From Escherichia phage vB_Eco_ZCEC15, in sequence record PQ871103.1: a stretch of DNA of 64,000 bases; one strand, written 5' to 3'. Of this stretch, positions 16,620-18,601 are shown in pieces; the first letter of the stretch is position 1, and each line of letters begins with the position of its first letter. Made by a program: the position numbers and the translations under genes. Under the pieces are notes generated by a model, which made no database searches, was not told where the DNA came from, and saw only the letters and a program-made list of their open reading frames with translations.

Positions 16620-17181
16620 ATTTTTCTAATAATAAATCGCTTTCAAAATTGGGATTTTCTACGAATTTATCAAAAAGATCATCAACAATAGTTAAGATAT
16701 TCTTTTTACTAAGAATACGCTTATTTTCATATTTTGTTTCAGAGTCAACTATAAGAGTAAAGAAATATTTCTTTCCCTGAAATTTTACCGTAGTATCAAT
16801 ATAAAATAAATTTGATTTTTGTAAATTACGTTTAAACCATGCATCACTTAAACTATAAACGCCAAGATAATCATAATCGTCGTTTAAATAACAAACCGTC
16901 CATTCAGGAGAAATGAAATCAGTAAATTCAACATCAAAATCACACGTCAATGAATGAATTGATTCAATACTGTTAATAAGTATTCCAGGACGTATTAAAG
17001 ACTTTTTACCTCTAGAAAATCTTCCGGAAAGACTTTCATCAGTTTCATATGAAGACCCCCAATAGTAATTACGTCCTTCTGCCATACGTTTAAGAGCATT
17101 TAGTAATTGGTCTGGAACATCAACCTGTCTTTGGAACTCTTCAAACATTGAATTGAAATCACTTTGCATTTTCATTTTCAT
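16567..17181 (-). CDS. hypothetical soluble protein (204 aa)
   Basis: ORF; C-terminal FVKECREYV resembles the motif of the three downstream membrane proteins. Confidence 0.55.
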   Translation of the reverse strand: MKMKMQSDFNSMFEEFQRQVDVPDQLLNALKRMAEGRNYYWGSSYETDESLSGRFSRGKKSLIRPGILINSIESIHSLTCDFDVEFTDFISPEWTVCYLNDDYDYLGVYSLSDAWFKRNLQKSNLFYIDTTVKFQGKKYFFTLIVDSETKYENKRILSKKNILTIVDDLFDKFVENPNFESDLLLEKFVKECREYVKAITIPSK

Positions 17182-17198
17182 TCCTATTTACTCCAAGT

Positions 17199-17220
17199 AT
17201 AAGGGGCCGAAGCCCCTTAT
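17199..17220 (-). terminator. GC hairpin (terminator or RNA-stabilising element)
   Basis: AAGGGGC-TTCG-GCCCCTT; the same 19-mer recurs at 58707-58725. Confidence 0.45.
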
Positions 17221-17222
17221 CA

Positions 17223-17815
17223 TTATTTCAGAGAATTAATGTATTCCTGAACATCGGCAGAGGTAGTTTCAACCCCAGAAATATTACCATTAAAGGTTTC
17301 AACTCGAGCAAGGGTATCTTCAATATCAACCTTAGTCAGTGCTGCAATTTCAACTACATCATCTGCAGCACTAATTCCAAGGGCATTTGCCGCACGAGTT
17401 TCACGGATATATTCCAATTTAACTGCAAGCTCTTGACGAGCATCATCTAACTCAACTACTTTCTTGGCGATTTCAATTCGCATTTCAGCATAACCGTCAG
17501 CCTTAGTAGTCAACTGCTCAGCTGTTCGACGATATAGTAAACCAAGTTTAGCATGCATTGTTACATCTTGACCTTCGGAAAGAAGTTTACGAATTTCACG
17601 CTCTTTTGATTCAGCCTGTCGATTCTTTTCGACAATAAGTTCACGAATACGTTTTTCTTCATTAATAGATTTAACAGAAGCAGTTTTAGATCTTTAATTT
17701 TATCAAGTAGTTTTGCTGCCGCAGCAGTATACTGTTCTTCAACAGATAAATTTTTAGCCATAGCAGAACCAAGTTTAGTGCGAATAAACTCAACAATTTT
17801 CTTCAGTGTGTTCAT
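17223..17815 (-). pseudogene. coiled-coil protein gene interrupted by apparent 1-nt frameshift
   Basis: Two ORFs (17561-17815 and 17223-17558) overlap in different frames; downstream frame reads as good protein up to a stop at 17694-17696, upstream frame becomes low-complexity LLLLNLL; shift site near AAAA run ~17684-17692. Confidence 0.5.
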
Positions 17816-17842
17816 AGTATTTCCTTAGGTTGATACAATTAG

Positions 17843-17872
17843 ATAATATCACGTTTTTAATAGATTGTAAAC
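17843..17872 (-). promoter_or_regulatory. T4-type early promoter
   Basis: GTTTAC-N18-TATTAT upstream of the frameshifted gene start 17815. Confidence 0.55.
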
Positions 17873-18208
17873 TTATTCTTCGTCTATCTCATCGATAAAG
17901 ACGTCAATGGCCTCGATAACGGCATCATTGATAGCCAATAAAGTAAAATCATCGTCAGTGCCTTTAGAAGATTCTAAAGCATTGATATATGCTTGGTTAG
18001 CAAGTTCCCAAGCCTTTTTAAAATAAGGAGCTTCATCATCAGGGCCAACGAAACGTACACCTTCAAAGATACGGTTAGCATAATCCAATACCCACTGTAC
18101 AGGCATGTTTTGAGAGCGTTCGTTAAACTCTTTAAATTCCTTAGATTCAAAAAGCTCTTCGGGATAATAATTTCGATTACAAAAAGCTTTACTAAAGTTA
18201 CGTTTCAT
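17873..18208 (-). CDS. hypothetical acidic protein (111 aa)
   Basis: ORF with acidic C-terminus; early promoter -35 overlaps its stop. Confidence 0.5.
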   Translation of the reverse strand: MKRNFSKAFCNRNYYPEELFESKEFKEFNERSQNMPVQWVLDYANRIFEGVRFVGPDDEAPYFKKAWELANQAYINALESSKGTDDDFTLLAINDAVIEAIDVFIDEIDEE

Positions 18209-18263
18209 AATGTTCTCCTCAAGTTACAGGCTCATAATATCTCAATCATGAGCCTGTGTAAAC

Positions 18264-18527
18264 TTATTTCATATTATTGAAATATTCTTCTGCGATTTCG
18301 TCGTTATCATGGTAAACTTTAGAAGACAGTTTAACATAACCTTCTGCTGTGAACATATTAATCACAACTTTTACAGTATACCACTGACCGTCTTCATTAC
18401 CCATTACTGCGTAAGTTTCAAACATCGGATGATCAGGACCGATAACTTTAATATCATTCACTGTACGACCGAAATCTTCTGAAACGCATTTCATAAAGAA
18501 GTTGAACAGTTCGCCGTAATTATCCAT
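18264..18527 (-). CDS. hypothetical protein (~87 aa)
   Basis: Start adjusted to ATG 18525-18527 after GGAG; the track's extra N-terminal codons are the promoter -10 read in frame. Confidence 0.5.
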   Translation of the reverse strand: MDNYGELFNFFMKCVSEDFGRTVNDIKVIGPDHPMFETYAVMGNEDGQWYTVKVVINMFTAEGYVKLSSKVYHDNDEIAEEYFNNMK

Positions 18528-18571
18528 TTCATTCTCCAAGTTGTTTTTCTGTATCAGTAGTTGATAGTTGT

Positions 18572-18601
18572 ATAGTACCATGGAAGAACAGGGATGTAAA
18601 C
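18572..18601 (-). promoter_or_regulatory. T4-type early promoter
   Basis: GTTTAC-N18-TACTAT; exact 22-mer repeat copy. Confidence 0.6.

Follow-up and report, generated by a model that had tools for sequence, protein, structure and literature searches.

In phage T4, Streisinger-type slippage frameshifts at runs of A:T pairs have classically been described in rII and in the lysozyme gene e. Programmed -1 frameshifting, as in E. coli dnaX (A_AAA_AAG) or in the tail chaperone genes G/GT of phages, displays a tandem slippery heptamer, a stimulatory stem-loop, an upstream Shine-Dalgarno-like element and a conserved arrangement. The T4 e.6 family (PHROG 1203), which is annotated as a 22-kDa hypothetical protein, is encoded by an uninterrupted open reading frame (ORF) of about 195-203 aa.

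Here, we analyze a locus in Escherichia phage vB_Eco_ZCEC15 (PQ871103.1) that can be compared to each of these systems. By "the window" we refer to the whole stretch of DNA that was analyzed, which is 64,000 nt long and stems from a T4-like phage (Tequatrovirus). The locus shares with the e.6 family the full-length profile match of its restored product and the position between e.7 and e.5, but instead of one uninterrupted ORF it has an 84-aa and a 111-aa ORF in different frames, plus a substitution, T150A. With Streisinger-type slippage in T4 it has in common the one-unit contraction of a short A run and the independent recurrence at one site that a frameshift hot spot would lead one to expect, though this run counts as a hot spot solely because the loss recurs in public assemblies, a pattern that could also arise from an artefact. 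With dnaX and G/GT it shares a lysine codon AAA that follows an A, as well as a downstream ORF in the -1 frame, whereas the tandem slippery heptamer, the stimulatory stem-loop, the upstream Shine-Dalgarno-like element and the conserved arrangement are all absent from the e.6 site.

Results

One e.6 gene with a one-base loss in an A run

An earlier note, made from the letters of the window, had described an apparent +1 frameshift that splits a coiled-coil early gene. The features of the split gene are the following.

17561..17815, minus strand: upstream ORF of 84 aa, beginning at ATG 17815; residues 1-44 of e.6, then 40 out-of-frame residues, with a TAA at 17561-17563
17694..17696, minus strand: TAA that opens the native e.6 (downstream) frame, seen in the sequence and its translation
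17684..17687, minus strand: A4 tract in which the one base is missing; in alignments, relatives have A5 (CTAAAAACT) where the window has CTAAAACT
17223..17693, minus strand: native e.6 frame past the deletion; three non-native in-frame codons (17685-17693) come first, followed by residues 45-197 from 17684, with the stop at 17223-17225
17223..17558, minus strand: longest ATG-started ORF in the native frame according to the ORF list, 111 aa, from Met87 of e.6
17369, minus strand: private, non-synonymous substitution ACT to GCT (T150A) in the downstream part of e.6, seen in the alignment

The frame beginning at ATG 17815 had been said to read as plausible protein and then to degenerate into junk, and this is borne out, because its residues 1-44 are identical to e.6 of the relatives and are followed by the out-of-frame tail, which is rich in leucine and lysine. 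The second frame is indeed open from the stop at 17694-17696 through to 17223, as had been stated, but its designation as "+1" does not hold. The offset of the downstream relative to the upstream frame is 119 nt, and 119 mod 3 equals 2, which places it in the -1 (or +2) frame. A ribosome that changes from one frame to the other must therefore re-read one base, the last A of AAA, rather than skip one. The native-frame part (residues 45-197) differs from the relatives by a single residue, and its Met87 ATG at 17558 sits 2 nt past the stop of the 84-aa ORF.

The A4 run lies at the low end of the approximate interval (17684-17692) in which the missing base had been suspected, and the corresponding A5 tract is found at codons 43-45 of e.6, a gene that contains two other A5 runs, at gene positions 61-65 and 161-165. 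Adding one A yields an ORF of 594 nt and 197 aa, in good agreement with the approximately 195 aa that had been foreseen for the fused protein. Except for T150A, this product is the same as the e.6 protein of three close relatives, and its identity to e.6 of several phages, among them Shigella phage vB_SsoM_113 and Escherichia phage ECP2301, is 99.5%. Furthermore, the restored protein matches the PHROG 1203 profile with an E value of 3.6e-87, with residues 1-197 aligning to positions 1-199 of the 200 profile positions. The match both to this profile and to the e.6 proteins of relatives thus reflects homology rather than chance. The suggestion that one base missing from the A run splits a single gene was therefore correct, since the added A restores the 594-nt gene of the relatives; the locus is one disrupted e.6 gene, and the lesion is an ordinary one-base homopolymer frameshift.

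The best match to the 851 bases around the site, among 638 phage records matched, is SsoM_113 (99.8%). Over 1223 nt (17086-18309), the loss of the A and T150A are the only differences between this phage and the window. The 62-mer around the T150A site has no exact match in phage records, and in an exact look-up in a collection of 15 billion proteins the T150 form was present on 200 contigs, while the restored (A150) protein was absent. A clustering of the two private changes in e.6 was considered and is not significant, e.6 making up roughly half of the 1223-nt block.

Two further features lie on either side of the gene.

17843..17871, minus strand: promoter-like site (TTTACA, 17 nt, TG-TATTAT) upstream of e.6, with 10/12 consensus matches and an extended -10 TG; a consensus match only
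17199..17220, minus strand: GC-rich hairpin (AAGGGGC-TTCG-GCCCCTT) directly 3' of the e.6 stop, seen in the sequence and kept in relatives

The promoter-like site fits into the short intergenic gap 3' of e.7, whose stop is at 17873. The hairpin, which palindrome detection lists on the plus strand, is likely a transcript-end or stability hairpin. Since the promoter-like site and the start codon are intact in the sequence, as is the hairpin that follows the stop, the e.6 locus is probably still transcribed. The view of the restored product as a helical protein under an early-type promoter is supported, with the promoter being a consensus match.

e.6 as a single gene of T4-like phages

In every annotated ortholog examined, e.6 is a T4-type gene with a single CDS of 594 nt. 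The gene order in annotated relatives is e.8, e.7, e.6, e.5, on one strand of the e-to-tRNA region, and the ORFs that flank e.6 in the window are exact matches to the proteins flanking it in relatives, where they are annotated as e.7 and e.5. A tblastn search with the restored protein showed that 1091 of 1099 phage records have a place that covers at least 80% of e.6. All 60 rows sampled from this search were single-piece, at identities that go down to 31% in RB43-type phages. The 44 homolog cluster representatives likewise align unbroken through the junction, where L43 is invariant; nearly all of them are 195-203 aa long, and three have longer N-terminal gene calls. The alternative of two truly separate genes was rejected, as the orthologs examined have no split at these boundaries: the alignment of orthologs that the earlier note had proposed returns a single CDS throughout. 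Judged by these comparisons, T4-like phages have e.6 as one conserved gene of fixed length, and the allele in the window is broken.

The broken form is private to the window among related GenBank phages. The 62-mer centered on the A4 run has no exact match in 449 such records, 443 of which match it at 98.4%, i.e., with one difference, and this difference was a one-base gap in every record that was aligned. In an exact-pattern scan, a 22-mer with A4 was absent from IMG/VR, from JGI metagenome contigs and from GTDB genomes, in which the A5 form of the 22-mer had 4, 8 and 0 matches, respectively.

The neighboring genes display differences of their own. e.7 (17873-18208 in the window) is mosaic between e.8 and e.6: it has 111 aa in the window and in SsoM_113, while its position is taken by an unrelated 176-aa ORF in Escherichia phage UGKSEcP2 and by a 58-aa ORF in a contig from the sequencing run SRR27242230. 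For e.8 (18264-18581 in the window), the mechanically called ORF has 105 aa as compared to 87 aa (264 nt, start MDNYGELF) in relatives; a T5/T4 difference at 18544 lies upstream of the annotated start, and e.8 is therefore not broken. At the equivalent of approximately 16621 in the window, near the overlap of e.5 and e.4, SsoM_113 (LR746311.1) carries T4 in place of the T5 of the window and of UGKSEcP2. An "e.5" of 975 nt is annotated in SsoM_113, and the one-base run difference appears to fuse e.5 and e.4. Escherichia phage vB_Eco_F25 (OP870144.1) has A4 at approximately 2435 and 4039, where a contig from the run SRR25240051 has A5; these sites are in e.2 and in a small ORF after the lysozyme gene, and e.2 of F25 is annotated 40 codons shorter. 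Single-base run differences in the e.6 region are common, whether or not they are real.

The same loss in other public assemblies

A profile search of 1.84 billion representatives brought up a protein of 84 aa that ends in the same out-of-frame tail, and related matches led to Logan contigs. The A5-to-A4 loss was found in three such SRA-derived contigs, from the runs SRR27242230, ERR14295341 and SRR25240051. They carry A4 at the same run, each in a different e.6 allele, and each is 97-99.9% identical to GenBank phages with A5. The events are therefore recent and independent rather than an old arrangement that has been maintained. A fourth distinct 84-aa product was found as well, such that the loss occurs in at least four e.6 alleles other than that of the window. 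An ORF of 111 aa starting at Met87 is present on six Logan/ENA contigs. Neither the 84-aa nor the 111-aa product of the window itself has an exact match in the protein collection, from which the genome of this phage is therefore missing.

Two assemblies contain further e.6 lesions. When the ERR14295341 contig (ERR14295341_12601, e.6 at 418-1011) was compared to phage YUEEL01, 2 SNPs and 2 indels were seen in 3881 nt. Both indels fall into e.6, one being the loss of the A and the other the gain of AT in an (AT)3 repeat (GGAATATATCC). The remaining 3.3 kb of this contig are the same as in YUEEL01 apart from two substitutions. Moreover, the metagenome contig PPYE01645410.1, which is otherwise typically T4-like, has an out-of-frame deletion of 247 nt inside e.6 (gene positions ~210-456). 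The double lesion and the large deletion favor a real decay of e.6.

Other contigs are of a different nature. The contigs from SRR32346290 and SRR32346270 encode a distant e.6 homolog in two pieces (ORFs of 110 aa and 87 aa), for which an apparent contraction from A6 to A5 is inferred. They show several apparent one-base losses within 600 nt, and the comparison to the related protein P0125 points to further ones near the 3' end, a pattern that looks like error-prone data or a decaying gene. A protein of 82 aa (P0124) is an N-terminal fragment of e.6 with many C-to-T-like changes (A to V, T to I, S to F, R to C); it may come from bisulfite-treated or deaminated reads.

Translation of the split allele

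Ribosomes that initiate at ATG 17815 would be expected to produce residues 1-44 of e.6 plus the 40 out-of-frame residues and to terminate at 17561-17563, which would leave the phage without full-length e.6. The only route to the C-terminal 111 residues would then be a restart at the Met87 ATG, for which a coupling to termination is suggested by the 2-nt spacing.

This spacing raises the question whether the gene is split but useful, in that termination and restart yield the 111-aa C-terminal fragment and the deletion was selected for a kept or changed partial function. Apart from the proximity of the stop to the ATG at 17558, it speaks for such a scenario that all five observed homopolymer alleles have the same -1 change at the same run, while the collection of 15 billion proteins contains none of the products predicted for slips at the two remaining A5 runs or for a +1 change at this run. 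However, the look-up of predicted slip products requires exact sequences and thus has little power, and the finding of cases was biased towards the product of this deletion. A -1 change at the third A5 run would reach the same stop, and yet such a product was not found. Furthermore, the ERR14295341 carrier has lost the C-terminal frame too, and in the structural model (see below) the second long helix of a hairpin has Met87 at its start, which would leave the fragment without its partner helix. We therefore regard a selected split gene as very improbable.

Alternatively, the A4 form might be a regulated one, in which tRNA-Lys slips by -1 on A_AAA (CUA AAA C), or the polymerase stutters on the run, and full-length e.6 is thereby obtained. 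With four As, tRNA-Lys would find a perfect pairing after moving back by one base, and the slip would recreate the native sequence exactly. Also, the A4 allele recurs in several backgrounds, and the downstream frame is intact in the window as well as in the contigs from SRR27242230 and SRR25240051. Against this, the zero-frame codons are CUA AAA CUG, which do not form an X_XXY_YYZ heptamer, and of the two tRNAs only that on AAA can re-pair, as CUA in the P site cannot. The next codon, CUG, is common, so that a pause is unlikely. The 111 nt beginning just upstream of the site (17700-17590) have a minimum free energy of -16.4 kcal/mol as compared to a mean of -14.95 for shuffled sequences (z = -0.5), and a run of 4 nt is far too short for transcriptional slippage, for which about 8 nt or more are needed. 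A4 occurs in 0 of the 449 relatives, and a second frameshift destroys the downstream frame in the ERR14295341 carrier. Programmed frameshifting, which the earlier note had listed among its options, is thus not supported: with no conservation, no slippery heptamer and no RNA fold beyond that of shuffles, the evidence is against it, and the lack of conservation largely refutes it. Nothing suggests that low-level spontaneous slipping on A_AAA is put to use, and we consider recoding in any form as highly improbable, even more so than a selected split.

Slippage mutation or miscall

With e.6 as one broken gene, the A could be missing from the phage DNA or from the base calls. In the first case, one A:T pair would have been lost by replication slippage from the A5 tract at codons 43-45, which would constitute a hot spot in a dispensable accessory gene, and the result would be a recent loss-of-function or split allele. 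In the second case, e.6 would be intact in the phage, with A5 in its DNA, and one A would have gone missing from the consensus. We lean towards a genuine, recurrent slippage mutation, while a miscall, though the less probable of the two, has to be taken seriously. That the deletion is in the DNA and that e.6 is dispensable is what we infer. The following observations bear on the choice between mutation and miscall.

When approximately 58 kb of the window were aligned to UGKSEcP2 and SsoM_113, the e.6 site was the only frameshifting indel in a conserved gene, even though the window holds about 360 A/T runs of five or more. Other differences in run length are located outside the annotated CDSs of the relatives (21574, 23079) or between ORFs (18736, 18544). 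For the two that were tested, 21574 and 18736, there are exact 62-mer matches in other GenBank phages, and they are therefore natural variants. With a single gene-breaking indel and natural run variants where tested, the assembly thus appears not to have a general homopolymer problem. There is, accordingly, no sign of a general undercalling. The contigs from ERR14295341 and SRR25240051 have no gene-breaking change at any other A5/T5 run. In SRR27242230, the run is next to GACC rather than GATC, which argues against a simple artefact of the Dam motif. Finally, the neighboring private change, T150A, is not an error of the homopolymer type.

A miscall nevertheless has several points in its favor. 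The contraction of a homopolymer by one base is a classic error of several sequencing platforms. None of the 449 GenBank relatives shares the A4 form, and IMG/VR, the JGI metagenome contigs and the GTDB genomes lack it too, but it recurs in unpolished assemblies of SRA runs, and among the other Logan contigs those from SRR32346290 and SRR32346270 have obvious homopolymer undercalls. Comparable single-base run differences exist nearby in GenBank relatives, as in the fused e.5/e.4 of SsoM_113 and the truncated e.2 of F25. The absence of A4 from 449 curated relatives, together with its repeated occurrence in raw-run assemblies, counts against a genuine mutation, since an artefact specific to this sequence context would give the same pattern. 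Moreover, e.6 has been kept whole in about 99% of over 1000 genomes and thus seems to be under selection, which makes a natural null allele rare a priori.

If the slippage mutation is genuine, one may go further and propose that the A5 tract is a true hot spot and that A4 is repeatedly selected across T4-like phages. For instance, a host defence might sense the e.6 protein, or the protein might come at a cost to the phage on some hosts, which would make the loss or splitting of e.6 adaptive. The A4 contigs, the doubly mutated e.6 in ERR14295341 and the 247-nt deletion would then be the footprints of such selection. We regard this extension as rather unlikely.

Predicted structure of the e.6 protein

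An AlphaFold model of e.6, built from 44 sequences, has a mean pLDDT of 74.6. It is all-helical: a short helix at the N terminus is followed by a long hairpin made up of helices 25-80 and 86-145, and further short helices form the C-terminal part. In a Foldseek search against the PDB, the nine best matches were all Vipp1, with E values from 1.5e-3 to 3e-2. The e.6 family profile, when searched against the PDB, is colinear with Vipp1 over residues 4 to 142, though not significantly so (E 1.7-3.5).

The Pfam family PspA_IM30 (PF04012) had no match in any of the 44 e.6 members, for which Pfam returned weak coiled-coil noise only; hhalign of e.6 versus E. coli PspA gave nothing (probability 0.5%); and a PDB sequence search with e.6 had no match. 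The search for PspA homologs yielded near-identical enterobacterial PspA only, which is too little diversity for a useful profile. In the literature on T4 e.6 and on phage-encoded PspA/ESCRT-III proteins, nothing relevant was found. Hence, e.6 resembles the membrane-remodelling proteins of the PspA/Vipp1 (IM30)/ESCRT-III group in shape only, the sequence signal being not significant, and a PspA/Vipp1-like role of e.6 at the membrane is a lead provided by the model.

Discussion

For the annotation of this phage, our analysis means that the locus should be entered as one disrupted e.6 gene, either as a pseudogene or with the remark "frameshifted; check reads", and not as two new genes or as a recoding site. 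In itself, this carries little wider weight. Homopolymer frameshifts are common in the accessory genes of AT-rich T4-like phages, and similar differences are seen in the neighboring genes of the relatives.

The sole unusual aspect is that the identical one-base loss is found in several unrelated public assemblies. If these recurrent losses are real, e.6 is repeatedly discarded despite its conservation in more than 1000 genomes, and the losses would offer a way to approach what this widespread protein does.
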